Positions 8,799-63,455 of a stretch of 64,000 nucleotides of DNA are shown here, one piece after another (positions within the stretch are counted from its first letter, which is position 1; each line of letters starts with the position of its first letter). Location of the stretch: the NCBI GenBank assembly GCA_041651415.1, contig JBAZJH010000001.1:87713-151712 (forward strand), in the 5' to 3' direction. The position numbers and the translations under genes were made by a program. Source of the DNA: Minisyncoccota bacterium (GTDB lineage: Bacteria; Patescibacteriota; Minisyncoccia; UBA6257; XYB1-36-10). The notes beneath the pieces were generated by a model that did not search any database, was not told the DNA's origin, and worked only from the letters and a program-made list of their open reading frames with translations.

Positions 8799-11700
8799 TT
8801 ATTCGACAATTTCCGAGGGGATGATGGCAGTAACGTAACGGTTATACCTATCCTGAAGGAAAACAAAAATGCTGAATTTTACAGGAGTATTAGGCCATTC
8901 TACCATCTCTACTACCCAAACATTCCTCGTGATCTCCGTTATTCGAAAACGGATTTTCGAGGCGAGATCTAAAGAAGTGTCCGCGATAACCAAAGCTCTT
9001 GCCAGATTATCACCTGTTAAAAAACAAGTGAAAACCGGTTCGGTTTTTCCGATTGTCGCTTTAACTACACCGGTAAGAATCATCAGATTCTTTGCCGGAG
9101 GAGTTGGAGTCGGTGGAATCGGAGTTGCGGTTGGCACAAGCGTCGGTGTCGGAGTCGGTGGAACAGGCGTGGATGTCGGAGGAACAGGTGTTGGCGGAAC
9201 CGGTGTCGCCGTTGGTTCCGGCGTGTTTGTCGGAGTTGGCGGAACAGGCGTTGGCGGAACCGGTGTCGTTGTTGGTTCCACAAAAGCTTCGGTGGCATTC
9301 CATACAATCGTGGCTGTCACCGAATTCACTCCGTCACTCGCGACGATTTCGAAACTGCTCGTCGGGCCGATTTCCGTTGCCGAAAACACCAAGTCGGCAG
9401 ACAAATTCGAACCGACCTGCATAACGCTTGTCACCTCTACGACAAATGTCGGAGAGATGACAAAAGCGCTCACGATGTCGCCGTCGTCCGGGTCCGTAAT
9501 TGTTATATGCAATAATTGCGAATCCCCAACGGCTAACTCCGGCGTGGCATCGGTTGGCATCGCGAATACTTCCGGCGATACCGAAATAATCGGCGCTTGA
9601 TTCGCTTTCGGCGTCGGCGTTACAGTCGGCGTCGAAGTCGCGGTTGGAGGCAAAGTTGGGGTCGCGGTTTCCGTCGGCGTTGCAGTCGGCGGAAGCAGAA
9701 CGATGTTGATGCAGAAAGTTTCTTCCTTATCGAAAACCTTAAATCTAAAAATAAACGACCCTTGGTTTCTTTTGGAAGAAAAACTAATTATCAATTGCCG
9801 GTCACTTAATCGTTCCGTGTTGGTTTCCCCGAGCTGAGGAACGCCAACCATTTCTACTCTTCCTGCTTCTACTGAAGCTAAAAATTTTAAATTTCCAGTA
9901 GAAGACATGGCCCCGCTGCCGGAATAAGAAGCTCCAGTTTCCGGATTGGAAAAAGAAATTAAATCCGGAGGTACAGGAGTGTTTGTCATAGTCGGAGTAA
10001 CAGTCGCTGTCGGCAGAACTGGTGTAGTTGTTGGCACCAAGGTTGGTGTCGGAGGCACAGGAGTTTCTGTCGGCGTTGCTGTCGGCGGAACCGGAGTGTC
10101 GGTTGAAGTACAAGTTGGCGTCGGAATTTCCGGCGTTACAGTCGGCAATTCCGGAGTTGCTGTTGGAAATTCCGGAGTTTCAGTTGCTGTGGGCAACAAC
10201 TCTGTTGCTGTTGGCTGAACTGGAGTGTTCGTACTCGTGGGAGTAGGAAGCGCTTCAGTTGCTGTTGCTGTCGGCAATTCCGGGGTATTCGTTGCCGTCG
10301 GCGGGACTTCTGTCGCCGTCGGAGGCACTGAAGTATTGGTCGGTGTCGGCGGAACTTCTGTCGCCGTCGGGGGCACTGGAGTGTTGGTTGGAGTACTAGT
10401 TGGTGTTGGTGTCGGCGCTGGATTGATAGTAAATATAGCGTCAACAAAAGACAGATTGTAATTCGTATTCAAGGCCAAAGTGCCTTGGCAAATCGCATAG
10501 TCTCCGACAGGTTCACCTGGGTCGCGTATCAGCGCGCCCGAGAAGGCGTCGCTGAATGCTAACGAACCCGAAGTAATCTGATAAGTGAACACTGTAGGGT
10601 CCGAATCCCCAAAGGTTTTCGACTTGGGTTCAGCCGCTACCGTAATCTGTCTTGCCGTGACAAGTAAATTGTCACCAACAAATGCCAGATTATAGTTGTC
10701 GCTCAAAGCCAGACTTCCTTGGGTGATGGCGTAAGTGCTGACATTTTCGCCAGGTGCTCGCGTGAGCGAACCCGAGAAGGTGTCAGCTCCGACCAGCGAG
10801 CCTGCGGTGATTTGGTAAGTGAGAGGCGCTGGGTCGGCATCTCCGTAGACTTTCGTCTGCGGGTCGGTAGTGACTTCGATCGTTCTTTTGTTAACTACCA
10901 GGCTCGCCGTTCCACTGCTTGCGCCGTTTTCCGTGTCGCCCGCGAAATTCGCGGCGACTCCAACCGGATATGAACCTTGATTGGTATCAAGGACGATTCC
11001 GGTGAGAGTTGCGACACCGCTACCGTCAGTCAAAGCGTTGCCTTTAGCAACGCCATTAAGCGAAAAGTCAATTTGCTTTCCGCTCATGGCTGGCGAAAGC
11101 GTCGCCGACAAACCGACGATGTTTCCGTAGTTGTCGGTAATTGAAGCTACCGACAAAGACGTGGAAAACACCGAACATGGCTCGTTCAGAGAAAACGGCC
11201 AGTAATCAACATGATCACTGACGGCATTTCCAGTCCCTGTTGGGTTTGAAGAATGAAACGGACCGGTAGGAGAACCCCACCAGTTTCTTTTGGCGTTTGC
11301 GGTCAAATAAACGACATTTGATTCAAAGCCAAAATTATTACCGATTCGATTGAGATTAGCTATAATACTGGTAAATATACCAGTATCGCAACCGCTCTCG
11401 CACTGATATGTCCCGATGCCTGTTCCAAATCCGGTGATGGTGTTATTCATCATCAGTAGATTCAAATTATCGGGGCCATATCCGGCGTCGGCTTCCAAGC
11501 CGACTGTTCCGGTGTTGTCTGGACCGCTGAAGTTAATTACATTGTCCGTAATCACTACATCCAGCGTTCGTACCACCATCGGTTTATTCTGTCTGCCAAA
11601 TCTGGAAGCAGTTTTTCCTTTGGCGGCCGGTTTTTCCGGAACGTCAAACGGCGAGGGAACGATTCCTGGCGGGTCGGAGGCGACTATGCCGTATCCCGAT

Positions 11701-14471
11701 TCGCCGGCTTTGATGGTCTGTAATTCATTACCATCAATTATTCCCGTGCCGTCATAGCTGTAGATGGGAACCTGGCCGTTAGTGACCTGGCTTCCTACCA
11801 CATTAACATCCGCGTAATAACTAAGAATGCTTGATGCCACCCATTTAGTGGCAGAAGCGCTGTTATCATACGCAATGCCGTCAATAGCCGTGTCTTCAAT
11901 CACTGCGGTCAGTGTCCCGAGTGGCGACCCAATATCATAGACTTGGATGCCATTTTGGGCGGTAACGGCAGTCACGCCATAACCTTGCACGTTGTTATTT
12001 TTTATAACAACTTGCAAATTTTTTCCCGCTAGAGCAACGCCATTCTTTTGAAAGTCATGAATGTCATTGCCAAGCAAGTTGATAACGCGCGCGACTCCGT
12101 CATTGTTGTAAGAATAAATTCCTACGCCATGTTGGACGCCGCTGAACGGCGTATCGCGCACGTCTTTTATAACGCAGTTCTCAACCGTTCCGCCGGCATT
12201 CCAAAAAGCGATGCCATCAAAACGATTATTGCTGTTTCCCCGCCCTGCTCCGTCAACGATAATGTCTTTCATTATCAGATTGGCATTTTTGGCGAGAATG
12301 ATTGGTTTGTGGGTTGCGGTGGTTGTGAAGCTCCCCGTCAGAATAACGGGCGACTTGATAAAAGTTCCGCCTGCCATTCCTAGAACAGATAGGTCTTTTC
12401 CGTCATCAATAACTTGTTCTTCAAAAGTTCCGGCAGAAACCAGAACTTTGTCGCCGGTAACAGCAGCGTGGTCAACTTCACCTTGAATCGTTCCGCCGAT
12501 ACGACGGACATTATTAAAGGTGCCGTAACTATTCGGATAAGAATATGTCCGAATATCGTTTGGAGGATTTACTCCTACCACAACGGCTCTGTCAAAAGTG
12601 TTGTTAGTAAAATACGATGCCCAATCAAATTGGGTGTTATCGTAATCACCCCTCGCACGGATATGCTGGCTGTTGCCGGAAAAAGTGTTGCCGGTAATAA
12701 CGGCTCCACCGATTCCATAGACAAACCATGGCACTCCGGTGCCACTTCCTGTGAAGCTGATTGAAGCTCCGGAACCGCTAAAAGCAATTTTGTTATTAGC
12801 GATTACGCGTCCAGAAACCAAACCTGTGTAACCGGCGCCGCTGTTAATATCGATACTGCACTGATTGAGGTAATTTCCCTCAACTAAATAAGTTTGGACA
12901 TGGGAAGTATTGGTTCCCGTGTCAAAGCGTTCATCGCAGAGATAAACTGACGCCCACGGATTGATAGCGGTGGTGTCGGTGATTTCGCAGTATTTTATTA
13001 CCGCGTTATCACCAATAACCGTTACTGTTTTGTTAGTCCCAAGAGTCGGATTTTGCCAGATTTTAAGACCGGTCAAAGTGACATTATCACCTTGAACCCA
13101 GACTCCATCCGGCCCAAAATTATCTGTGGCGTTTGTTTCCACAAATGCCTGAATATTATGGTAATCCGTAATCGGGTTTCCGCTCGCATCCACTCCTTCG
13201 ACTGTTAATCCGTCTTTAGCTAAATAAAGGCCAAAGGTGTAACCGGAATAAGAGCCGGAGGATGGTGTGGAGCGATTGGCCGCTGTTTCGGAATAACTGC
13301 CAGGGAAAACTTTTACAGTTCCACCCGCAGCAACTCCGTCAATACCTTCCTGAATTGTCGAAAAAGCATCGTAGCCGTAAATGTGTCCGTCGGAGCCACC
13401 ATCTGTATAGGCAGCGTCAACGAAAACAGTAGACGGGTTCGGTTCACTTAAAATCGTCATTATGGCGTTGACCCAATAAGGGCCAAAGTCCACCGAGCCG
13501 ACAATTTTGCTTGCGATTAAGGGGCGATAAGCTGTGCCCCACCAGTTTCTTTCAGCGTCCAGTGTTGTGCTGGACAAGTTAACAACATCGCCGTTTAAGT
13601 TGACATTGTTAACTTTCAAAATACCTGACGCAGTGTCGCGAACAACAACAGCGGCAAAGTATTTGCCGGCTTCCGGCGTATAGCCGTTTTTGTTGACGCT
13701 GATACTGCCGCCGGCAACAGCCATATCGACGATGGTTGAGCTGCCAAAGCGCACGCCGTAAGTGTTGTCCGTCGCGTTGTTGGCGACAACATCGATATTC
13801 GTATCTTGGACAACTAAATTACCGCCGCCGCCTTGGTGATTAATTCCGCTATGGACATTAGTCATAGTGGAATTCTTAACCGTGAGATTTAGCGCGTAAC
13901 CTTGAACCGAACCATATAGACCATTTTGGAAAGTGCACTCCTCAATCGTGATGTCTGAGTTGCCATTGCTGGCGCCTCTTTCCAAAACGACACCAAGCCA
14001 AGCTCCGCTCGCTGTACCGTCATAGATAAACCGGCTGCCACCGTCAAAAATGCAATTTTTGACAACAGCGCCATTGACGCCAAAAAGCGAAAGAAGGGTG
14101 CTCGTGGTTATTTCAAAGTCGATATTTTCCACTCGGACGTTATCGTCCATGGAACTATCGAGATTGTAAACGACGGAACCTGCGATTGTCGTCAGGGGAT
14201 TACCGGAACCATCGATGGTTCCTATAAGATTAATTCTTTTCCCCAAGACTTTCGTTGGCGTGATGGTGCCGTTTTTGACATCTTCCGGATAACTTCCGGC
14301 CGCAATTTGAATCGTGTCGCCGTCTGCCGCGGCATTGATTGCCGCTTGAATCGTTGTTTGATCAGTCGGCACATTGATGACAGCCGCACTCGCTTCGCCA
14401 GTGAATCCTAAAAAGAGAATTACCAGCCCTAAAACTGCGAAACCGCTTTTTCTAAACTTACTCTTGTTCAT
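8799..14471 (-). CDS. Giant secreted surface protein (1890 aa) with a signal peptide, right-handed parallel beta-helix repeats, MBG/YDG-type repeats and long Pro/Thr-rich linkers.
   Basis: Signal peptide MNKSKFRKSGFAVLGLVILFLGFTGEASA. Repeated beta-helix rungs with NWWG caps (ERNWWGTAYRP, KRNWWGSPTGP). KVYGD…TYQITAGSLVG…NYNL MBG-like repeats. PTPTPTSTPTNTPVPPTATEVPPT… linkers. Confidence 0.85.
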   Translation of the reverse strand: MNKSKFRKSGFAVLGLVILFLGFTGEASAAVINVPTDQTTIQAAINAAADGDTIQIAAGSYPEDVKNGTITPTKVLGKRINLIGTIDGSGNPLTTIAGSVVYNLDSSMDDNVRVENIDFEITTSTLLSLFGVNGAVVKNCIFDGGSRFIYDGTASGAWLGVVLERGASNGNSDITIEECTFQNGLYGSVQGYALNLTVKNSTMTNVHSGINHQGGGGNLVVQDTNIDVVANNATDNTYGVRFGSSTIVDMAVAGGSISVNKNGYTPEAGKYFAAVVVRDTASGILKVNNVNLNGDVVNLSSTTLDAERNWWGTAYRPLIASKIVGSVDFGPYWVNAIMTILSEPNPSTVFVDAAYTDGGSDGHIYGYDAFSTIQEGIDGVAAGGTVKVFPGSYSETAANRSTPSSGSYSGYTFGLYLAKDGLTVEGVDASGNPITDYHNIQAFVETNATDNFGPDGVWVQGDNVTLTGLKIWQNPTLGTNKTVTVIGDNAVIKYCEITDTTAINPWASVYLCDERFDTGTNTSHVQTYLVEGNYLNQCSIDINSGAGYTGLVSGRVIANNKIAFSGSGASISFTGSGTGVPWFVYGIGGAVITGNTFSGNSQHIRARGDYDNTQFDWASYFTNNTFDRAVVVGVNPPNDIRTYSYPNSYGTFNNVRRIGGTIQGEVDHAAVTGDKVLVSAGTFEEQVIDDGKDLSVLGMAGGTFIKSPVILTGSFTTTATHKPIILAKNANLIMKDIIVDGAGRGNSNNRFDGIAFWNAGGTVENCVIKDVRDTPFSGVQHGVGIYSYNNDGVARVINLLGNDIHDFQKNGVALAGKNLQVVIKNNNVQGYGVTAVTAQNGIQVYDIGSPLGTLTAVIEDTAIDGIAYDNSASATKWVASSILSYYADVNVVGSQVTNGQVPIYSYDGTGIIDGNELQTIKAGESGYGIVASDPPGIVPSPFDVPEKPAAKGKTASRFGRQNKPMVVRTLDVVITDNVINFSGPDNTGTVGLEADAGYGPDNLNLLMMNNTITGFGTGIGTYQCESGCDTGIFTSIIANLNRIGNNFGFESNVVYLTANAKRNWWGSPTGPFHSSNPTGTGNAVSDHVDYWPFSLNEPCSVFSTSLSVASITDNYGNIVGLSATLSPAMSGKQIDFSLNGVAKGNALTDGSGVATLTGIVLDTNQGSYPVGVAANFAGDTENGASSGTASLVVNKRTIEVTTDPQTKVYGDADPAPLTYQITAGSLVGADTFSGSLTRAPGENVSTYAITQGSLALSDNYNLAFVGDNLLVTARQITVAAEPKSKTFGDSDPTVFTYQITSGSLAFSDAFSGALIRDPGEPVGDYAICQGTLALNTNYNLSFVDAIFTINPAPTPTPTSTPTNTPVPPTATEVPPTPTNTSVPPTATEVPPTATNTPELPTATATEALPTPTSTNTPVQPTATELLPTATETPEFPTATPELPTVTPEIPTPTCTSTDTPVPPTATPTETPVPPTPTLVPTTTPVLPTATVTPTMTNTPVPPDLISFSNPETGASYSGSGAMSSTGNLKFLASVEAGRVEMVGVPQLGETNTERLSDRQLIISFSSKRNQGSFIFRFKVFDKEETFCINIVLLPPTATPTETATPTLPPTATSTPTVTPTPKANQAPIISVSPEVFAMPTDATPELAVGDSQLLHITITDPDDGDIVSAFVISPTFVVEVTSVMQVGSNLSADLVFSATEIGPTSSFEIVASDGVNSVTATIVWNATEAFVEPTTTPVPPTPVPPTPTNTPEPTATPVPPTPVPPTSTPVPPTPTPTLVPTATPIPPTPTPPAKNLMILTGVVKATIGKTEPVFTCFLTGDNLARALVIADTSLDLASKIRFRITEITRNVWVVEMVEWPNTPVKFSIFVFLQDRYNRYVTAIIPSEIVE

Positions 14472-17248: not shown

Positions 17249-17278
17249 CGCGTCCGATTAATCTCGGACGCTTTTTTT
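17249..17278 (+). terminator. Intrinsic terminator (gcgtccgattaatctcggacgc + T7).
   Basis: A 9-bp stem plus a T-run sits 40 nt after the 15718..17208 stop. Confidence 0.65.
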
Positions 17279-17375: not shown

Positions 17376-17529
17376 TCGAGTTTCGTTAAGTCTCTGTAAA
17401 AACATTTAATTTTATTAAAAATTTATTTTATCGGAATTGACATTTTGCCAGGGATTATTTCAATGCTAAAATTATTGACACAGGGGGGAGGGGATTTATA
17501 CTTTAAATTGGAAAAAGGCAACATAGCCG

Positions 17530-20500: not shown

Positions 20501-23500
20501 ATACAACAGCCAGCGCATTGGCTGATATAACGAAAAAAGATCTTTCCGTCACAATTACTGTTGCTGATAAAGTTTATGATGGAAATACAACTGCTACTAT
20601 TGGTGAGCGCGTGCCGGTTGGTTTGATTTCTCCTGATGTCATTGATTTAAGTGGAGGAACAGCAGTTTTTTCTGACGCAATTGTCGGCAATAACAAGCCT
20701 GTTACTGCTACGGGTGTAATTATAGAAGGAACTGATGCCGGGAATTACGAATATAACGGAACGGCAACAGGAACGGGTAATATTCTTCCGGTACCGACAA
20801 CGGTTTATGTTGATGATGATTTTTCAGAGGAAGGAGGGGCGGGAGATTATACTTTTGGCTATAACGCTTTTGACACAATTCAAGGAGGTATAAATGCGGT
20901 AGAAGTTGGTGGAACGGTAAACGTGGCGGCGGGAAATTATACGGAAGTCGAGCAGATCGTTATCGATAAAAATCTATCCATCGTTGGCGAAAACAAAGAA
21001 ACAACGATTATTAAGCCAGCGCAAAATACAACTAACACGGGTCATGCTGATTCCGCTGCCTGGATTTTAGTTAATAGTGATAAAACATTTAATTTAAGCA
21101 AGGTTACTTTAGATGGTAACGGCCATTTGATAGCTATCGGCATACTTTCTCACGGTCATGGCACTATAAATGATAATATTTTCACAAATATCGCTTATAA
21201 TCCCAGCGGACCTGACTATAAGGGAATGGCGATAGAACTTTACGGTTCGGATATGACAATCGAGAATAATGAATTTGCGAATATCGGAAGAATCGGTGTG
21301 TTTAATGGAAATGGAACGAATTCGCATATTATCGGAAATACTTATACCGGAAAAGGAGCGGGTGATTGGCTGGATTATGGATTTGAAGTGGGACGCGGCA
21401 GCCAATCGGAAATTAGCAATAACATAATAACAAACAACATTGGTGTTGCTTCTGACGGTTCAACTTCCGCCGGTATTCTTGTAACGAGTTTTTTTGGTCC
21501 GGGAATATCAAACGCGACTATAACCGGAAATTCGATCTCTAATTCCACAGACGGAATTGCTGTTGGTTATGATGGAAGCGACGCAAGCATAGTTGTTGCT
21601 CATACTAATAAATTCAGCGGCAACACAAAAGATATAAATTCTACCAAACCATCTGTTGATGGAACGAGAAACTGGTGGGGAACAATAAGCGGAACGGAAA
21701 TTGCTAATAAAGTCGTTGGCGATGTGAGTTATCGCCCATGGTGCACGGAAGTTACTTGCACTGTTATCGATACCAACGGCGCGCCTACGGTAACTATTTC
21801 TTCCGTTGCCGGTTCTTTGACAAAAACTTCTCCAATCCCTATAACCGTAACTTTCAGCGAACCTGTTTATGATTTTAATGAATCTGATGTGACTGTTTCA
21901 TTAAATGCGGGGGTGACAAATTTCTCTGAAGTAAGCGGTAGCACAAGTTATACTTTCGATTTAACTCCAAATGTCGGCGTGGATGAAGGAGAAATAACAG
22001 TTGATGTGGCAGCTGAAAAAGCTTGGGACGAAGCTGGAAATTATAACTTAGCGGCAACGCAATTTGTTATTACTTATGATTCGGTAATTCCTACTCTTTC
22101 TTCTGTTTCTATTTCTTCAAATAATATTAATCATTCTTTAGCTAAGGTGGGAGATATTATTACTTTAAGCTTTACCGCAGATGAAGAGATTCAAAATCCA
22201 ACCGTGATCATTGCTTCTAATTCTATTACCGCCACAAATAGTATTGGTAATGATTGGACTGCGGTTTATACAATGCAAAGTGGCGATGCTGAGATAGTTT
22301 CGTTTGAAATTAATTTTAACGATTTAGCGGGAAATGCGGGAACGAAAGTAACAGCTACAACTGATTTGAGTTCTGTGACTTTTGATGAAACCGCGCCGGT
22401 AGTGGCGATTACTTCTCCTCTGAATGAAACAAGAGTAAATGGTGACACATTGATTTCCTTTACTGATACTTCAACTTCGCCTAAATGTTCGGTAAATAAT
22501 AACAGTTGGACTGTTTGTGAAAGCGGAGTAACAAAGCTCTCTGATATTGCTCAATTTTCTGGATTAGGCCAGGGAATATTTACGCTTTATCTTAAAGATA
22601 TTGATGAAGCGGGAAATGAAGGAACAACAAGTGTGAGTTTAATAAAAGATTCAATTGCTCCTGAAGTGGAATCTTATACCCCGACCAATTTGGCGGTGGG
22701 AGTGGACCCGACCGGAAATGTGACTGCTTTATTCAGTGAGAAAATGAGTTTGGCAACTATTAATTCCACTAATATAGAATTAAAAAAGAGCGGAGAAGTA
22801 ACCGAAGTTGAAACGGACTTAACTTTAAGCGAAGACGGAAAAACTTTAACAATCAATCCGGTCGCGACTCTTCTTAATAACTCCACTTATGAAGTGAGAA
22901 TAACAACCGGCGTAACTGATGAGGCGGGAAATAATTTGGCATCGGAGGAAACGTGGTCGTTTACCACTTCCGGCAGTTATTCGTTCACTTTATCTAAAGG
23001 AACTAAAGGCTGGAACTTGGTTTCTCTCGGAGTTGTACCGAATGACACGAATATTGACGCAGTGCTTGGAAGTGCGAAAAGCAACATTGAATCGGTTTGG
23101 ACTTATGACCCGGTTAATTATTCTTTGAACGGAGGATGGAAAGTTTATAATCCGGCGGAATCAGGAACCAGCAGTTTGTTAAATATGACAGCCGGTTACG
23201 GATATTGGATAAGCTATAAAGGAACAGAAGCGGCGACAGTTTCCGGTCCGGGAAACTTGGTTCTGGAAGGAAATAATGTTCCGCCGTCAAGAACCTTGCA
23301 AGCCGGATGGAATTTAATCGGTTATTACCAAAAAGAGAATACGACAAGCGTTTTGGCATCGCTGGCTTTGAAACATAACCTGGATGATTATTGGACGATG
23401 CTTCTTGGATACAACAACACTACAAAACAAATGACTTCTCTTACAGGCGATAATTTATTGAATCCGGGAGAAGGATATTGGGTGCTACTTGACGGAAAGG

Positions 23501-23541
23501 CAACGGACTCCTATATCTATACTATCGGTGACAGCCAATAA
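17530..23541 (+). CDS. Giant secreted surface/adhesin-like protein (2003 aa) with multiple MBG-type repeats, a right-handed beta-helix region and Ig-like (Big) domains.
   Basis: A hydrophobic signal segment follows basic residues (…KNKPLAIAFVALLASGFFIINYALA). At least 8 K(V/T/I)YDG…GNYS/NYNL MBG-like repeats are present. Beta-helix rungs end in TRNWWGT. Big/SbsA-like segments occupy the C-terminal third. The start could instead be the Met at 17563. Confidence 0.85.
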   Translation: MLLWSLFIKIIMENIFYIFRAINLFFSKTAKSAAKNKPLAIAFVALLASGFFIINYALAVNGVMITPASGGVNISIDTTSATGGTGTFKSLSGPGITETTAGNISIGLHTIQLPSGYEFDTSSPISVVVIGDIGLTSTSIIPNQTSFTFEVTNISSSPSIIGFSNLKVRPTGIIAPSSGNITYSGSGIVSVDGNTNFGTLSLIPGAVKNLAFSTQPAGSVYGEILSQQPVVKTQDQFGNNSVNGLAESKIVSISLTSGSGSLIGTTEIDIGTGSGNGTASFSDLSVNNVGPGKVLSVTADGLIGVSSDSFEITVRNIEVTADNKTKVYGETDLGLTYQITYGSLVGSDAFTGNITRDSGEDVGDYSIKKGDLTLSENYNLSFIPASFTITPKALSVSGISSILKTYDGNTTAGVDFSTTSLVGIVEGDEGSVTLNPSSYSASFDNKNVETGKTVTVSGLTLDGAKAGNYSLTQPTLNDGVITPKTLTVTATGIDKEYDGTTNATVTLSDDRVLGDDLTLGYTSALFTDKDVANDKSIDVTGIIMNGVDAENYSLSSDHVTAYADINKKHITASLILQNKTYDGDTGATYSGDHVQLVGVISGDEVLASDGVSKSFADKNVGENKLVTALGIVLSGVDSGNYDFDGIGTGTATISKRPIIVTAVSNKKIYDGTAVSLGIPDVTPDGFATAIQTGDTAEFSQVFDNKNVGVGKTLTPSGLVDDENNGNNYSYTFVSVSTGEITIKSIEVTAQSDTKVYDGTNASSVPPKVDNLEGEDFVGTIPTQTYDNAIVGTGKTLTASGLVIDDGNGGANYEIHYIIDSTGEITEKELTVTGASSVEKIYDGNTNAEVNFGSASLVGIVEGDEGSVTLNPSSYSASFDNKNVETGKTVTVSGLTLDGAKAGNYSLTQPTLNDGVITPKTLTVTATGIDKEYDGTTNATVTLSDDRVEEDVLTPGYTSAAFEDKNIGTEKTVTVSGITKLGTDANNYILGNTTASALADITKKDLSVTITVADKVYDGNTTATIGERVPVGLISPDVIDLSGGTAVFSDAIVGNNKPVTATGVIIEGTDAGNYEYNGTATGTGNILPVPTTVYVDDDFSEEGGAGDYTFGYNAFDTIQGGINAVEVGGTVNVAAGNYTEVEQIVIDKNLSIVGENKETTIIKPAQNTTNTGHADSAAWILVNSDKTFNLSKVTLDGNGHLIAIGILSHGHGTINDNIFTNIAYNPSGPDYKGMAIELYGSDMTIENNEFANIGRIGVFNGNGTNSHIIGNTYTGKGAGDWLDYGFEVGRGSQSEISNNIITNNIGVASDGSTSAGILVTSFFGPGISNATITGNSISNSTDGIAVGYDGSDASIVVAHTNKFSGNTKDINSTKPSVDGTRNWWGTISGTEIANKVVGDVSYRPWCTEVTCTVIDTNGAPTVTISSVAGSLTKTSPIPITVTFSEPVYDFNESDVTVSLNAGVTNFSEVSGSTSYTFDLTPNVGVDEGEITVDVAAEKAWDEAGNYNLAATQFVITYDSVIPTLSSVSISSNNINHSLAKVGDIITLSFTADEEIQNPTVIIASNSITATNSIGNDWTAVYTMQSGDAEIVSFEINFNDLAGNAGTKVTATTDLSSVTFDETAPVVAITSPLNETRVNGDTLISFTDTSTSPKCSVNNNSWTVCESGVTKLSDIAQFSGLGQGIFTLYLKDIDEAGNEGTTSVSLIKDSIAPEVESYTPTNLAVGVDPTGNVTALFSEKMSLATINSTNIELKKSGEVTEVETDLTLSEDGKTLTINPVATLLNNSTYEVRITTGVTDEAGNNLASEETWSFTTSGSYSFTLSKGTKGWNLVSLGVVPNDTNIDAVLGSAKSNIESVWTYDPVNYSLNGGWKVYNPAESGTSSLLNMTAGYGYWISYKGTEAATVSGPGNLVLEGNNVPPSRTLQAGWNLIGYYQKENTTSVLASLALKHNLDDYWTMLLGYNNTTKQMTSLTGDNLLNPGEGYWVLLDGKATDSYIYTIGDSQ
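18785..19064 (+). repeat. Intragenic exact duplication, copy 1 (280 bp), inside the 2003-aa gene.
   Basis: Identical at nucleotide level to 20090..20369. The offset is 1305 bp, which is in frame (435 codons). Confidence 0.85.
20090..20369 (+). repeat. Intragenic exact duplication, copy 2 (280 bp).
   Basis: See copy 1. The encoded 92 aa (SLVGIVEGDEGSV…TLSDDRV) are identical in both copies. Confidence 0.85.
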
Positions 23542-23561: not shown

Positions 23562-24203
23562 ATGAAGACAATAAAATCTTTTATCCTGTTTTCTGCGTTA
23601 GTTTTCTTGCCGGGCCTTGCTTTGGCCGCCCCGGGAATTCCTAACCAGTTTTATGGAATGGTAAGCTTCACAAATGGCGCGGCTCCGGACAATTTACTGG
23701 TGGAAGCGAGAATAAATAATTCTTTGGTTGGAAGCTCCATAACTAAAGACGGGAAATACGGATATAATCCGGCTCTGCTTTTTGTTCTTGACCCCGATAA
23801 CAGCTTTTCCGGACAGACGATAAAGTTTTTCGTTTCCGGAACGGATACGGGAGAAACGGCTATTTTTGAGAACGGAAAATCGGTCAGTCTCAATCTGACG
23901 GTTCCGGTAGCTTTGGAAACAACTACGCAAACGACAACCACTTCCGGCTCATCGGGAGGCGGGGGTGGCGGCGGAGGAGGCGGAGGCGGTTATTCGTCTT
24001 CGACGACCACAACAACGACGACTTTAAGCGCCGCGGCTAAGCAAGTTGATGCAAATAATGACAATAAAATAGATATTCTTGATTTCAACATTCTGATGGT
24101 CAATTGGGGGAAAACCGGAACCGGTTTGACCGGTGATTTCAACAAAGACGGAAAGGTCGATATCTTCGACTTCAACTCTTTGATGATCAACTGGGGAGCT
24201 TAG
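23562..24203 (+). CDS. Secreted protein with a C-terminal dockerin-like duplicated Ca-binding repeat.
   Basis: Signal peptide MKTIKSFILFSALVFLPGLALA. A Gly-run linker (SGSSGGGGGGGGGGGGYSSSTTTTTT) is followed by two about 22-aa repeats, DANNDNKIDILDFNILMVNWG and DFNKDGKVDIFDFNSLMINWG. Both fit the dockerin D.N.D…D…(F/L) loop-helix pattern. Confidence 0.7.
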   Translation: MKTIKSFILFSALVFLPGLALAAPGIPNQFYGMVSFTNGAAPDNLLVEARINNSLVGSSITKDGKYGYNPALLFVLDPDNSFSGQTIKFFVSGTDTGETAIFENGKSVSLNLTVPVALETTTQTTTTSGSSGGGGGGGGGGGGYSSSTTTTTTTLSAAAKQVDANNDNKIDILDFNILMVNWGKTGTGLTGDFNKDGKVDIFDFNSLMINWGA

Positions 24204-24229
24204 TAAAAATCATAAAGTAAAAAAGAAAA

Positions 24230-24997
24230 ATGATAAAAAAAATTGGAATGGGGGCGGTAATTTTGGGAATAGTTTTAGCGGGAACGGCGCTCGCCGCGTC
24301 TTCGTTTTCTTTAAATCCATCTTCGGTTTCAGTGAATAAAGGAGAAACTTTTTCTTCGGCGGTTTCAATTGCTCCGGGGAGCGAAAAAATTTACACAGTG
24401 AAACTGGTTTTGTCTTATCCTTCCGATAAGCTTGAGGTAACCGGATTCGATTTCGGAAGCGGATGGATGCCGATTGCGGAAACCGGATATGATTCCGGCG
24501 ATTCGTATCCGCAAACTTCCGGAACTTTAATAAAAACAGCCGGCTGGCCGAAAGGATTTAACACAGCCAAAACTTTAGGAACGGTTTCTTTCAGGAGCAA
24601 AGCTTCCGGAACGGGAACGGTGGCAGTTTCAGCGGATTCGTTGCTTTTGAGCGGACAAAATATAAACGATTTAACGGGAACGGCGACGGCAAAAATTTCC
24701 TTAACTATAAAAGAACCGGTAACAGCGCCGATATCGACTTCGACTATTTCTCCGAAATCAAAAGAAGAAGTTGTTTCTAAAGAAACGGAAGAATTGGAGA
24801 AAGAGGCGACGACAACCATAGAGAAAGAGGCAAGCCAATTAGAAAACGGAACAAACGAAATAGTAAATCAGGAAATCAATAGAACGCTTCTTGCGAGAAT
24901 GGGCGGGTTGTTTTCTTTAAAGACAGCTCTATTTTTGATTTTTGTTTTAATGGTAGCGGCGGCAGTGGGAATTTTGGTTTGGAAAAAGAAAAAGTAA
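24230..24997 (+). CDS. Membrane-anchored protein with a cohesin-like beta-sandwich domain (putative dockerin receptor).
   Basis: After a signal peptide, …SVSVNKGETFSSAVSIAPGSEKIYTVKLVLSYPSDKLEVTGFDFGSGWMP…TLGTVSFRSKASGTGTVAVSADSLL…TATAKISLTI resembles the type-I cohesin pattern V.aKpG.tv.V.V.…Y…LEV as I recall it. A C-terminal TM anchor (LFLIFVLMVAAAVGILVWKKKK) is present. Confidence 0.5.
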   Translation: MIKKIGMGAVILGIVLAGTALAASSFSLNPSSVSVNKGETFSSAVSIAPGSEKIYTVKLVLSYPSDKLEVTGFDFGSGWMPIAETGYDSGDSYPQTSGTLIKTAGWPKGFNTAKTLGTVSFRSKASGTGTVAVSADSLLLSGQNINDLTGTATAKISLTIKEPVTAPISTSTISPKSKEEVVSKETEELEKEATTTIEKEASQLENGTNEIVNQEINRTLLARMGGLFSLKTALFLIFVLMVAAAVGILVWKKKK

Positions 24998-25079
24998 ACA
25001 AAGGAAAGTTGAATATAAAAAACAAAGCGGCTTAAATAGCCGCTTTGTTTTTTAAAGGGAGGAGGCGTAGAATAATTTT

Positions 25080-26691: not shown

Positions 26692-28653
26692 GTGATGAAA
26701 AGTTTTAAGAAGCAAAGAGCGTTTTTTGCGGCGGCGATTTTTATATTGGCGGCGGCGAGCGGATTTTCAGATTCAGTGAAAGATTGGAGAAAAGATATAG
26801 AGGTTGGGGATATTCTTTATGACCCGATTGGCGCTGTTATTGACTTGAAGATAATTGAATCAGTCAAAACGGGACATATAGGAATTTATGTGGGAGACGT
26901 TGAATATGGAGGAATAATTTGGCCGAATCAAGTGATTGAAGCAACACTTGTTGGTGGCGGAGTTTATATGATTGGAATAGAGGTTTGGGATTATCCGACG
27001 ACGAAAGAAGCTTGGATTCTCAGACCTAAAGCTCCGTCTGAATTAAAGAGAAAGGCGGTAGAATTTACTGAAAGCCAAATCGGAAAAGGATATACAAAGC
27101 TTAACTTTTTTTCAAGAAATCCTAGTCCGAATAACGAGCGTTGGTATTGTAGTGAACTTATTTGGGCGGCTTATTTTCAAGAAGGGAAGGGAATTGATTT
27201 GGCTAGCGTAAATATCGAGGAGGTGGGCGGAATAATAAATTCTGCCGTGTCGCCGCTTGATATTTTTGTTGATGACGACGTTTATTCTGTAAGCTATCAC
27301 GGAGATTACGATGTGATTCCGGAAGATGCTTTCAGAGTGTATAACGCAAATTTAGGGACGAGATATTTTTCCTTAAAAGAGGCGATAGAGGAAAAGTACT
27401 TGCGAGAGGGTGACATTATTTTAATTGAACCCGGAGGTTATCTGGGGGGAGGAAAAGTAGAAGAAAAGGGAGTAGTTTTGCGAGCGGTGGATTTTGACAA
27501 AGAAAGAAGAGTGGCAAAAACGGTAATTAGATCAGTAAAGAGCGTATTACAAACACTAGCTGATCTTGTTTCTTTTGAAGACCGGCCGACGGTGATCACA
27601 ATTTTATCTTCGGATGTGGTTTTAGAGGGGCTAACTATCACCGGGGCTTGGGGGAGCGAGGAAGTCGGAGGAATAAAAATAACAGAAGGAGCGGATAATT
27701 GCCGAATCTCCAATTGTATTTTATTCAATAATCCGTATGGAGTCGGAGCGGTTGATTCCTCCCATCATGTAATCAGAGACAATTCTTTTCTTTTTAACGA
27801 TTATGGCATTGGGTTTGTCCGATCTTACGGCGGCGAAGTTTTTAAGAATAGGATTGAGGGAAGTTTTAAGAAAGGATTTGTCGCAGGTGAGAATGAAGAA
27901 GCGTGCGCTTCAACGGCAGCGGTTGAAGAAATTCCGGGAAGCGATGTTCTTTTGTCTCCTTATAGAGATTTAAGGGATAAAATTCTTAAACCGCAGACAG
28001 TTTCCGATTACTATCGGTTTTCTTTGCCGGTTTTAGAAGTTTTTCGGAAAGATAAAAACTTAAAGAAGGAAGCTAGAGAGCTGATTTCTTTTTGGTCGCC
28101 GAAGATAAAACTTTTTTTTTCTGAAAATAAAGATTTTGAAATTAGAAGAGAAGAGGCGGAAAGAACGGCGGAGTTTTTGGAAAAACTTTCCGGTGGCTTG
28201 GAGAATTCTGAAACAAAAATTTTTGTGGAGAATCTTCTGAAAGAGGCGGAAATATCCGGCGGGAAAAAATTCAGCGAAGCGGTAAAAAATTCCTCGTTTT
28301 TTGAAGAAAAAAAATCTTCCACGAAGGCAAAGACGGAAAATTCCAAAAAGCCGACCTTTGTTTATTTAAATGATTTTTTAAATAACAAAGAATGGTCGGT
28401 TGGAAATTATCCGGAAGGATTGTTCTATTGGTTCTCGCCCGCCGAAATAAATTATTGTTTTAATAATAAAAATTTTTTCGGATTTCTTGGAAACTATTGG
28501 GGAGAGCCGGCAATGTCTTTTTTGGATAAAGACGGGAATGGAATTGGAGACAGCGCTTATGGCAATGATCTTTATCCTTTAATGGAGGGAGAGGATTGTT
28601 ATGGAAAAAAGAAGGCGGAAAAAACGGAAGTTTCGGATTGGATTTTATATTGA
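26692..28653 (+). CDS. Secreted multidomain protein: an N-terminal permuted papain-fold (NlpC/P60-like, His-before-Cys) domain, central right-handed beta-helix repeats and a C-terminal Asp/Gly-rich module.
   Basis: Signal peptide. HIGIYVGD (His) precedes WYCSELIWAAY (Cys) in the order typical of permuted NlpC/P60 (YiiX/YaeF-like) enzymes. Beta-helix rungs are …ITGAWGSEEVGGIKITEGADNCRISNCILFNNPYGVGAVDSSHHVIRDNSF…. The C-terminus is DKDGNGIGDSAYGNDLYPL. Confidence 0.6.
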   Translation: MMKSFKKQRAFFAAAIFILAAASGFSDSVKDWRKDIEVGDILYDPIGAVIDLKIIESVKTGHIGIYVGDVEYGGIIWPNQVIEATLVGGGVYMIGIEVWDYPTTKEAWILRPKAPSELKRKAVEFTESQIGKGYTKLNFFSRNPSPNNERWYCSELIWAAYFQEGKGIDLASVNIEEVGGIINSAVSPLDIFVDDDVYSVSYHGDYDVIPEDAFRVYNANLGTRYFSLKEAIEEKYLREGDIILIEPGGYLGGGKVEEKGVVLRAVDFDKERRVAKTVIRSVKSVLQTLADLVSFEDRPTVITILSSDVVLEGLTITGAWGSEEVGGIKITEGADNCRISNCILFNNPYGVGAVDSSHHVIRDNSFLFNDYGIGFVRSYGGEVFKNRIEGSFKKGFVAGENEEACASTAAVEEIPGSDVLLSPYRDLRDKILKPQTVSDYYRFSLPVLEVFRKDKNLKKEARELISFWSPKIKLFFSENKDFEIRREEAERTAEFLEKLSGGLENSETKIFVENLLKEAEISGGKKFSEAVKNSSFFEEKKSSTKAKTENSKKPTFVYLNDFLNNKEWSVGNYPEGLFYWFSPAEINYCFNNKNFFGFLGNYWGEPAMSFLDKDGNGIGDSAYGNDLYPLMEGEDCYGKKKAEKTEVSDWILY

Positions 28654-62204: not shown

Positions 62205-62402
62205 CTTATAGGGTGTTTACTTTAGGGCTGTTTTATACTAAAATTAAATCATAATTGAATATAGTGTAAAGACCTAAACCATAGCTTCGGCTGTGGCATG
62301 GCCAAAAAATCGTTCAACGCATTATACCCGTCATCAGGGCGCGTTGAACGTTACAGGAGGAAACTTCTGTAGAGACTGCGAGGTCTTACTGGTGGCGGGT
62401 TT

Positions 62403-63455
62403 GTGTTTTTATCCGCTACCAGATTTATAAAAAATATAAAGAATATGCGTAGTGGATTTATACAAACACCAATACTTATAATCTTAGCCGCAATAGGTAT
62501 TTTTATTGTAGGTAACGCAAGTTATCGTTTTCTTGATGATAATAAGACGAATAAAGATGAAGAAATTAAGGTTTTAGAAGAAAAGCCAGATAAAACTAAA
62601 GAGGTAGATTTGAGTAATATCTTTGGGGAAGAAACGGAAGAAAAAATATCTACCAATTCAGAATCTAAAATAAGATTATATCCTTCCTCCGAACCGGAAG
62701 AAGAGCCGGCGGCGGAAGTTGTCAGTCAAACTGCCGGCGATGCGGATAATAACGCTGAAACTGAAACAAATGATTATGTTGATGACTTGGCCGACAGAGT
62801 GGCAAAAGAGATAAAGCAACCGCTTTATCTTGGAGAGTTAGATGACGACATTGATGACTTTAATCGTATCATAAAAGCGGTTCAAGACGACCGAGAACGA
62901 TACATATCTTTCGCGGAAAAAGCAGCCAGACAGAGATTAGATGCATTAAACGGATTTATTTATCTTGCTACTGACCCGGGAATAAAAAACTTCGTACAAA
63001 GTTTAGCCGATGACGAAAAGAAAAATAGTGATGAAGCTCGTAAGAGCTACACTGAACTCTTTGGATTTCTTGAGAGTGAAATTACCGATTACATAACCAA
63101 ACTGGAGAATGCCAAAGAAGAAATAACCGAAGACAAGTTCATTGGAAGTGTTGACGACCTGTTATCTCAAAACACGAAACAAAAAGAATACTTCATCGGG
63201 CTTATGCCGCAATTCACTAAAAGCGCTCAAGAATTAGAAGAGAGAAAAGCTGATAATTTTTCTGACGGAATATCATATCTCCATAATCTATTGGCTGTAA
63301 GCGAAACACTTTCCTCTGTGAACCAAAAATTATCTCAAATAGAACAAGAAGCACGCGAAAACATTGTCTCTAATGACGAGGTAAATTGCTGGGCAACCAC
63401 AGAATATAGTGGCGGACTGAATGGAACTTCAAAGACAAGAGTTAGGTGTGAATAA
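62403..63455 (+). CDS. Hypothetical membrane-anchored acidic protein. The likely start is the ATG at 62445 (MRSGFIQTPILIILAAIG…).
   Basis: N-terminal TM helix, then a D/E-rich soluble region. The listed start at 62403 falls inside a GC-rich hairpin. Confidence 0.45.
   Translation: MFLSATRFIKNIKNMRSGFIQTPILIILAAIGIFIVGNASYRFLDDNKTNKDEEIKVLEEKPDKTKEVDLSNIFGEETEEKISTNSESKIRLYPSSEPEEEPAAEVVSQTAGDADNNAETETNDYVDDLADRVAKEIKQPLYLGELDDDIDDFNRIIKAVQDDRERYISFAEKAARQRLDALNGFIYLATDPGIKNFVQSLADDEKKNSDEARKSYTELFGFLESEITDYITKLENAKEEITEDKFIGSVDDLLSQNTKQKEYFIGLMPQFTKSAQELEERKADNFSDGISYLHNLLAVSETLSSVNQKLSQIEQEARENIVSNDEVNCWATTEYSGGLNGTSKTRVRCE

Follow-up and report, generated by a model that had tools for sequence, protein, structure and literature searches.

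A candidate cohesin–dockerin surface tether encoded beside a giant adhesin gene in Patescibacteria

The anchoring proteins closest in architecture to the one considered here were defined in a 2024 genomic survey as nonSLH-anchoring scaffoldins, which have a single cohesin and a C-terminal transmembrane (TM) helix; they occur in a few Firmicutes, among them H. luporum, C. cibarium and Lachnoclostridium sp. MSJ-17, and their partners are mostly unknown (PMC11557425). That survey makes no mention of Patescibacteria (PMC11557425). The anchoring scaffoldins of cellulosomes are of other kinds: SdbA and OlpB of C. thermocellum carry S-layer homology (SLH) modules, and ScaE of R. flavefaciens carries a sortase signal (PMC9012536; PMC11557425). 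Outside cellulosomes, cohesins and dockerins occur in all three domains of life (Peer 2009, as cited in PMC9012536 and PMC10066038), and binding has been demonstrated for archaeal cohesin–dockerin pairs (Haimovitz 2008, as cited in PMC9012536). Cohesin and dockerin proteins have been proposed to decorate the cell surface of anaerobic methanotrophic (ANME) archaea (PMC9012536), and dockerin-bearing giant open reading frames (ORFs) are reported in Omnitrophota (PMC10066038; bioRxiv 10.1101/2023.11.21.568195). Here we analyse a 64,000-nucleotide (nt) stretch of a Patescibacteria genome (Minisyncoccota bacterium, contig JBAZJH010000001.1, positions 87,713 to 151,712; ENA metagenome contig k141_567737), called the window below, in which three consecutive genes encode a giant surface protein (G), a secreted dockerin-bearing protein (P1) and a membrane-anchored cohesin protein (P2). 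We propose that these three proteins probably build a surface tether in a monoderm cell of the Patescibacteria, or candidate phyla radiation (CPR), in the form of a chain with P1 as the adaptor.

P2, with its one cohesin and C-terminal TM helix, falls into the category of non-SLH anchoring scaffoldins with a TM-helix anchor (PMC11557425), and the second mark of that category, a complementary dockerin protein, is present as P1, encoded 26 nt upstream. Both proteins have signal peptides; the C-terminal TM helix and basic tail belong to P2 only. None of G, P1 and P2 is built for sortase or SLH anchoring: the last 60 residues of each contain no LPxTG-like motif, and a scan of the window's proteins gave no Pfam match to SLH. 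The first-pass annotation of this DNA had suggested a non-cellulosomal system, and that reading stands. Within the window there is one cohesin rather than the two or more expected of a cellulosome, there is one dockerin, no glycoside hydrolase is fused to a dockerin, and the cargo of P1 is a non-catalytic β domain; related loci found with the dockerin as seed likewise hold one module of each kind. The parts belong to known module families, and the anchor architecture is that of a known category. What appears to be undescribed is the operonic one-to-one pair conserved across a major uncultured radiation, together with its interchangeable cargo and a candidate interaction between the N-terminal domain of P1 (P1N) and the C-terminal domain of G (GC). 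In a literature search that combined Patescibacteria, CPR or Parcubacteria with the two module names, cohesin and dockerin, no paper describing such a cassette came to light.

The dockerin of P1 lies at the extreme C-terminus of a secreted protein, behind a flexible linker, which is the placement expected of such a module. It consists of the repeats VDANNDNKIDILDFNILMVNWG and GDFNKDGKVDIFDFNSLMINWG, preceded by a run of 12 glycines that is flanked by serine and threonine, and aspartate or asparagine occupies positions 1, 3, 5, 9 and 12 of the EF-hand loop in both repeats. In the AlphaFold2 (AF2) model the Ca2+ loops DANNDNKIDILD and DFNKDGKVDIFD are followed by helices 172–180 and 201–209, with a predicted local distance difference test score (pLDDT) of about 95. 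Tandem loop–helix repeats of about 22 residues are the pattern of the type I module in sequence and structure (Pfam PF00404). Eighty of 83 relatives of P1 match the Pfam model Dockerin_1 at an expectation value (E) of 0.01 or less (best E 6e-10), and the family has over 369 members, most of which bear the label Patescibacteria or Nealsonbacteria. When the Protein Data Bank (PDB) is searched with a profile of the dockerin module, the true dockerins 5lxv_B, 2jnk and 5nrk_B rank ahead of calmodulins, and the single P1 dockerin sequence likewise places dockerins first. A PDB sequence search with full-length P1 returned only antibody single-chain variable fragments (scFv), driven by the Gly/Ser linker, and was discarded as uninformative; an NCBIfam scan of G, P1 and P2 yielded nothing useful.

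For P2 the evidence comes from the predicted fold and from homologs. The AF2 model shows a nine-strand sandwich (residues 25–161), then a disordered stalk and a long C-terminal helix, and a nine-stranded β-sandwich of about 140 residues is the cohesin fold (Pfam PF00963). Cohesins bind dockerins through one face of the sandwich, formed by strands 8-3-6-5. In a Foldseek comparison of the model with the PDB, 19 of the 20 best matches are cohesins (E down to 4.5e-8, target TM-scores 0.57–0.74), including the CohA2 complex of C. acetobutylicum and the non-cellulosomal cohesins of C. perfringens and A. fulgidus. Homologs agree with the fold. Sixty of 100 relatives match Pfam Cohesin (best E 2.3e-9), and some carry the NCBI label "cohesin domain-containing protein"; the syntenic ortholog in the related locus L003 passes the gathering cut-off (28.9 bits against 24.1) and covers model positions 3–136 of 139, and a relative 41% identical to P2 (P0004) scores 23.9 bits. 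The family is large, with 363 word-index matches and, in an exhaustive search, 1,205 representative clusters at E ≤ 1e-3 (231 at E ≤ 1e-30). With few exceptions, its members are 220–270 amino acids (aa) long and carry the cohesin domain directly behind the signal peptide; the domain has the family-invariant motifs YT.K, YP, GYD and (L)IKTAG[WY]P.G. Two descriptions in the first-pass annotation, a duplicated Ca-binding dockerin-like repeat after a Gly run in P1 and a cohesin-like β-sandwich with a C-terminal TM anchor in P2, are thereby borne out, the former with a two-helix model and a borderline Pfam score on P1 itself, the latter with a TM helix that ends in KKKK.

Hidden Markov models (HMMs) built from natural dockerin/cohesin pairs and run against all six frames of the window found exactly one dockerin (107 bits, at P1) and one cohesin (157 bits, at P2). 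Since these models match solely P1 and P2 in the window, the two modules at these genes are not a chance occurrence. General-purpose searches were less decisive. The same annotation had named the Pfam models as a check, and on the two proteins themselves its outcome was marginal: P1 reached 22.6 bits against Dockerin_1 (E 1.3e-4), 0.3 bits below the cut-off of 22.9, and P2 gave no Cohesin match. Because Pfam on P1 and P2 alone was marginal or empty, identification needed homologs and structure prediction. PDB searches with the sequence of P2 and with a 100-sequence family profile reached no solved cohesin, and the cohesin assignment of P2 thus rests on Pfam matches in homologs and on the fold.

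One alternative, which the missing Cohesin match of P2 would suit, is that P2 is a generic immunoglobulin (Ig)-like surface protein of the Big_2 type and the tail of P1 a structural EF-hand pair, neither working as a cohesin–dockerin system and the trio being simply co-expressed envelope or adhesin proteins. The best PDB sequence match of the P2 family profile is indeed an Ig-like phage tail domain; that match spans about 35 residues, a short Ig-like strand motif, whereas the whole domain of about 140 residues and nine strands superposes on cohesins over 146–162 columns, and cohesins head the fold ranking. Big_2 is touched by 21 of 100 relatives, but Cohesin is the commonest Pfam match in the family, at 60, and its model is covered over its full length. 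A similar balance holds for P1. EF-hand models match its tail and calmodulins score close behind dockerins, yet each EF-hand model matches at most 63 of the 83 relatives against 80 for Dockerin_1, and in P1 the two 22-residue repeats stand in tandem behind a linker at the very end of the chain, an architecture of dockerins and not of the calmodulin type. We consider the Ig-like explanation very improbable.

The two modules are strongly conserved as a pair. A scan seeded with the cohesin gave 49 loci from species-representative genomes, essentially all of them Patescibacteria (Jorgensen-, Wolfe-, Yanofsky-, Taylor-, Azam-, Nealson-, Nomura- and Vogelbacteria and Paceibacterota). Upstream sequence could be evaluated in 45, and in 42 of these a gene ending in a dockerin lies immediately upstream on the same strand; in a 43rd (L041) the upstream dockerin survives as a frameshifted remnant. 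In about 42 of 43 natural pairs the carrier protein ends with its dockerin, placed after a Gly/Thr linker as in P1, and the gap between carrier and cohesin genes ranges from −24 to +132 nt. The reciprocal scan, seeded with the dockerin and run on metagenomes, found that 67 of 68 evaluable loci have a cohesin ORF starting within 400 nt downstream; each locus holds a single dockerin and a single cohesin. It follows from this one-to-one pairing that the two families form a dedicated gene pair rather than one anchor for dispersed clients, and for this dockerin subtype the idea that one anchor serves many cargos was rejected, as 67 of the 68 loci carry their own adjacent cohesin. The cassette is widespread across Patescibacteria, a point that goes beyond the first-pass annotation. 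A 712-aa ORF in L035 that looked like a natural fusion of P1 and P2 runs through masked N's and was dropped as an artefact. In the complete Nealsonbacteria genome CP179889.1 (647,540 base pairs) two carrier-plus-cohesin cassettes, L028 and L038, lie about 34 kilobases (kb) apart; their dockerins and cohesins are almost the same, as is the Cys-containing carrier domain. They are paralogous cassettes, which probably cross-react.

It is quite likely that the P1 dockerin binds the P2 cohesin. Reciprocal synteny, together with the topology, lends strong support to the earlier proposal of a cognate pair that tethers surface components; the binding itself is what we infer. It might be argued that a true cohesin and a true dockerin are merely co-transcribed here, the dockerin being directed at another cohesin, encoded elsewhere in the genome or present on a host cell, or at a cell-wall polymer, and P2 at some other ligand. 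Elsewhere, many non-cellulosomal dockerins and TM-anchored single cohesins stand without an identified partner (PMC11557425; PMC9012536). Such independence is difficult to reconcile with a near-obligate adjacency that holds in both directions across very divergent lineages and through changes of cargo, with the presence of exactly one module of each kind per locus, and with the observation that dockerin and cohesin are the best conserved parts of their respective proteins. This alternative is therefore improbable.

The region in front of the dockerin varies by lineage, and the TM-anchored cohesin is constant. The cargo may be a protein of the P1N type, of about 200 or 350 aa, or may contain fn3-like and CHB_HEX_C_1 domains. 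In L008 (L008:319-4545) it is a Peptidase_S8 subtilase, a subtilisin-like protease with a fervidolysin-type prodomain; in L022 (L022:6770-9886) and L033 (L033:4707-7874) it is a lamin-tail-domain (LTD) protein, and in L024 there are Ig-like proteins. In L014 (L014:516-3200) the dockerin is fused directly to a GLUG/YDG/MBG adhesin of the same kind as G. Several of the syntenic carriers score 24–38 bits against Dockerin_1. A constant membrane-anchored cohesin with a swappable dockerin client matches what is expected of a surface-display tether, and the large dockerin-tagged proteins of L008, L022, L033 and L014 suggest that exo-enzymes as well as adhesins are displayed. The carriers L012:9204-9911 and L042:9264-9944 begin with repeated GYAWSAN.G(W/F)I.F(N/S) motifs and represent another uncharacterised cargo type; L012 has no Pfam match.

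The interchangeable cargo, and what looks like a role for P1 as an adaptor to the C-terminal domain of G, likewise go beyond the first-pass annotation. G is an adhesin-type surface protein, as its Pfam domains indicate (YDG x8, MBG_2, Big_12 and Big_5). The GC domain has no relative in Pfam or the PDB; the motifs of its internal repeat are GWNL[IV][SG]..P ... G[YF]GYW[IV] followed by GWNLIGYYQ ... PGEG[FY]W[IV]. Among evaluable cohesin-seeded loci, the upstream protein ends in GC in 11 of 13 with a carrier of the P1N type and in 0 of 26 with other carriers (Fisher 4.7e-8). The association was replicated in the independent dockerin-seeded set (30 of 33 versus 1 of 10, 3.6e-6), and it persists in L050, L051 and L053, whose upstream proteins reach only about 650 aa and are otherwise unlike G. 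This association, together with the direct fusion in L014, suggests that P1 is an adaptor whose P1N domain binds GC. P1N, modelled over residues 28–114 with a pLDDT of about 95, matches no Pfam family. Its fold matches are prealbumin/transthyretin-like sandwiches, namely the SlaB stalk, the C-domain of the PapC usher and the regulatory domains of carboxypeptidases; as modelled, P1N is a structural or binding module and not an enzyme.

A different role for P1 has to be weighed here. Even if the cohesin and dockerin bind each other, P1 could be an end product, such as a subunit of a surface coat, a spacer or a cap, and GC and P1N could travel together simply as parts of a vertically inherited three-gene block. 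Both the synteny counts and the co-occurrence statistics ignore shared ancestry, and a block inherited in this way would give similar numbers. The fold matches of P1N are generic and weak (E 1e-4 to 1e-2), and its resemblance to stalk or spacer domains such as SlaB would suit such a subunit. G, moreover, has a hydrophobic signal or anchor of its own near its N-terminus (about residues 38–60, ending in YALA before V); if this segment is an uncleaved anchor, G needs neither P1 nor P2 for its retention and the adaptor step is weakened. Simple co-inheritance accounts less readily for the retention of GC with P1N where the rest of the upstream protein has been replaced by one of about 650 aa, for the invariable position of GC at the extreme C-terminus, and for the L014 adhesin, which bears its dockerin directly, as would be expected if an adaptor substitutes for fusion. 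An end-product role for P1 is, on this evidence, rather unlikely, and an adaptor role is preferred; the specific contact between P1N and GC we rate at a little short of an even chance.

The observations are the module identities, the predicted topology, the operon boundaries, the reciprocal synteny and the domain co-occurrence; the mechanism that we propose goes further. P2 would be exported by Sec and held in the membrane by its C-terminal TM helix, with KKKK inside, and would show its single cohesin outside the membrane on a flexible stalk of about 60 residues, acting as a monovalent, non-SLH, non-sortase anchoring scaffoldin. P1 would be secreted, and its Ca2+-loaded C-terminal dockerin would bind the P2 cohesin and so fix P1 at the cell surface. 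The most plausible ligand of P1N would be GC, with which the giant YDG/MBG adhesin ends, so that the chain would run from the membrane through P2 and P1 to the giant adhesin. In other CPR lineages the dockerin that the cohesin anchor would receive is fused straight to its cargo, be it a protease, an Ig-like or lamin-tail protein or a YDG/MBG adhesin, with no adaptor. The assembly may serve adhesion to host cells or to a substrate. Several points already raised weigh against this scheme: the sub-threshold Dockerin_1 score of P1, the missing Cohesin match of P2 and the failure to reach solved cohesins by sequence, the generic fold of P1N, the hydrophobic segment of G, the indifference of the statistics to ancestry, and the indirect route by which P1–P2 binding is deduced.

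A wider generalization is offered tentatively and is more doubtful than the tether itself. It holds that CPR bacteria possess a lineage-wide plug-and-display system, which replaces sortase and SLH anchoring and mounts host-attachment adhesins and exo-enzymes, with the P1N–GC contact as a second pair that extends the chain. On this speculative account the TM-anchored monovalent cohesin would always be encoded with its own dockerin-tagged client, and at the present locus P1 would be the adaptor that plugs the 2003-aa adhesin into the anchor.

The ORFs for P1 and P2 are present on the forward strand where the first-pass annotation had placed them, adjacent to each other and downstream of the giant surface protein; G ends 20 nt before P1, and 26 nt separate P1 from P2. 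Given these short spacers, the flanking terminators and the promoter-like site (Table 1), G, P1 and P2 are most simply read as a single transcription unit. Promoter-like sites in the region are no more numerous than in shuffled sequence, and the one at 17475..17502 counts as a consensus match only.

Table 1. Coordinates of the G–P1–P2 locus within the 64,000-nt window
Feature	Position	Strand	Remarks
Terminator	17250..17271		Strong; closes the gene preceding G
Promoter-like site TTGACA-16-TATACT	17475..17502	+	11/12 consensus match, sigma-70-like, just 5' of the G gene
G, giant surface protein, 2003 aa	17530..23541	+	YDG x8, MBG_2, beta-helix-like region, Big_12, Big_5, C-terminal GC
GC domain, last ~190 aa of G (aa 1815-2003)	22972..23538	+	Internal two-fold repeat
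P1 gene, 213 aa	23562..24203	+	Secreted, dockerin-bearing; proposed adaptor
P1 signal peptide, aa 1-22	23562..23627	+	MKTIKSFILFSALVFLPGLALA, then AP; from sequence and hydropathy, cleavage inferred from AxA motif
P1N domain, aa 23-120	23628..23921	+	Prealbumin/transthyretin-like beta sandwich, pLDDT ~95, no Pfam family
P1 Thr/Ser/Gly linker, aa 121-154	23922..24023	+	Includes 12 consecutive Gly; disordered, pLDDT <50 at residues 120-151
P1 dockerin module, aa 155-213	24024..24200	+	Two 22-residue repeats, Ca2+ loops D-x-N-x-D-x-x-x-D-x-x-D, helix after each
P2 gene, 255 aa	24230..24997	+	Membrane-anchored monovalent cohesin protein
P2 signal peptide, aa 1-23	24230..24298	+	MIKKIGMGAVILGIVLAGTALA, then AS; from sequence and hydropathy; begins MIKK, ends TALA before AS
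P2 cohesin-fold domain, aa 24-165	24299..24724	+	Nine beta strands, pLDDT 80-94 (AF2)
P2 stalk, aa 166-228	24725..24913	+	Acidic/Thr/Ser low-complexity, disordered; ends in (S/T)LLAA.G
P2 C-terminal TM helix and KKKK, aa 229-255	24914..24994	+	TM helix ~aa 229-250; hydropathy and model
Intrinsic terminator	25016..25054	+	Hairpin and U-run after P2; dG -24.1 kcal/mol, z -8.1

Two further features of P2 may be recorded. The juxtamembrane motif (S/T)LLAA.G (24881..24913, aa 218–228) is moderately conserved, with A222 in 85%, L221 in 68% and G225 in 63% of 100 sequences, and forms a helix of its own in the AF2 model; its role might be that of an interfacial helix, of an element for oligomerisation or of a sorting signal so far unrecognised. 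The public ENA gene call for P2 begins 11 codons later (24263, 244 aa) than 24230. With the later start the basic n-region MIKK of the signal peptide would be lost; a Sec signal is more consistent with the ATG at 24230.

Elsewhere in the window, a second giant ORF of 1890 aa with MBG_2 domains lies on the reverse strand (8799..14471), and domain scans found no dockerin, cohesin, GC or P1N module in it; the segment that holds it has a G+C content of 0.45–0.51, clearly above the window background of about 0.39. Two genes 3' of the operon, on the forward strand, a secreted-looking protein of 653 aa (26692..28653) has a permuted papain-like Peptidase_C92 domain at its N-terminus as well as NosD/right-handed β-helix repeats; it may be a further protein of the envelope or one that acts on the cell wall. 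At 62271..62387 on the forward strand, just 5' of an ORF at 62403..63455, the Rfam family LOOT RNA (RF03000) is matched over its full length with 75.4 bits (gathering score 46.4, E 2.2e-12).

Little is understood of the way in which ultra-small CPR bacteria retain their large surface proteins and attach to host cells, and study in culture is not yet easy. The locus names explicit candidate partners, the P2 cohesin with the P1 dockerin and P1N with GC of the giant adhesin, which are testable with small recombinant domains. If the scheme is true, it shows how giant adhesins and exo-enzymes can be mounted on the monoderm CPR envelope with neither sortase nor SLH modules, and it extends cohesin–dockerin biology to a major uncultured radiation in which the anchor protein forms more than 1,200 representative clusters. 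The cassettes would then also be a source of naturally orthogonal, compact cohesin–dockerin pairs, and possibly of a new GC–P1N pair, for the engineering of protein assemblies.

Among described systems, the non-SLH scaffoldins of Firmicutes offer the nearest parallel to P2, which has the same signal peptide, one cohesin and C-terminal TM helix and is presumed to be likewise a receptor for dockerin-tagged proteins. In those genomes, however, partners are mostly unknown or encoded elsewhere and many dockerin proteins compete for few cohesins, whereas here the partner gene lies immediately upstream, the ratio is strictly one to one, and the lineage is Patescibacteria; P2 is also too far from the classical cohesins for a direct Pfam match. 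With the anchoring scaffoldins of cellulosomes the proposed tether would share the capture of a C-terminal, Ca2+-dependent dockerin by a cohesin at the surface, and thereby the tethering of a larger assembly. It differs from them in that its cargo, an adhesin or adaptor in place of a glycoside hydrolase, does not degrade polysaccharides, in that no scaffoldin has several cohesins, and in its anchor, which is a TM helix with neither SLH nor LPXTG elements.

The A. fulgidus cohesin 2xdh and the cohesins of the C. perfringens toxin complexes (2vo8, 2jh2, 2w1n) count among the closest structural counterparts of the P2 model, and the C. perfringens dockerin 2jnk/2ozn is among the best sequence matches of the P1 tail. 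In these pairs, as here, the modules are used outside cellulose degradation. Those of A. fulgidus and C. perfringens stand on enzymes, on toxins or on the same polypeptide, and none of them is described as a TM-anchored receptor whose gene stands with that of its ligand in a conserved cassette beside a giant adhesin. ANME archaea and Omnitrophota resemble the Patescibacteria in being uncultured and partner-dependent or ultra-small, in having giant surface proteins, and in the proposed use of cohesins and dockerins for surface attachment or cell–cell contact. Their modules are scattered and numerous, with no partner assigned, in contrast to the one-to-one gene pair and candidate adaptor described here. 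P1 itself may be compared with the monovalent adaptor scaffoldins of complex cellulosomes (PMC11557425), since it has a dockerin at one end and a second putative binding module at the other. In the classical adaptors that second module is a cohesin; in P1 it is a prealbumin-like domain without a Pfam family, for which GC, at the end of the giant adhesin, is the proposed ligand.

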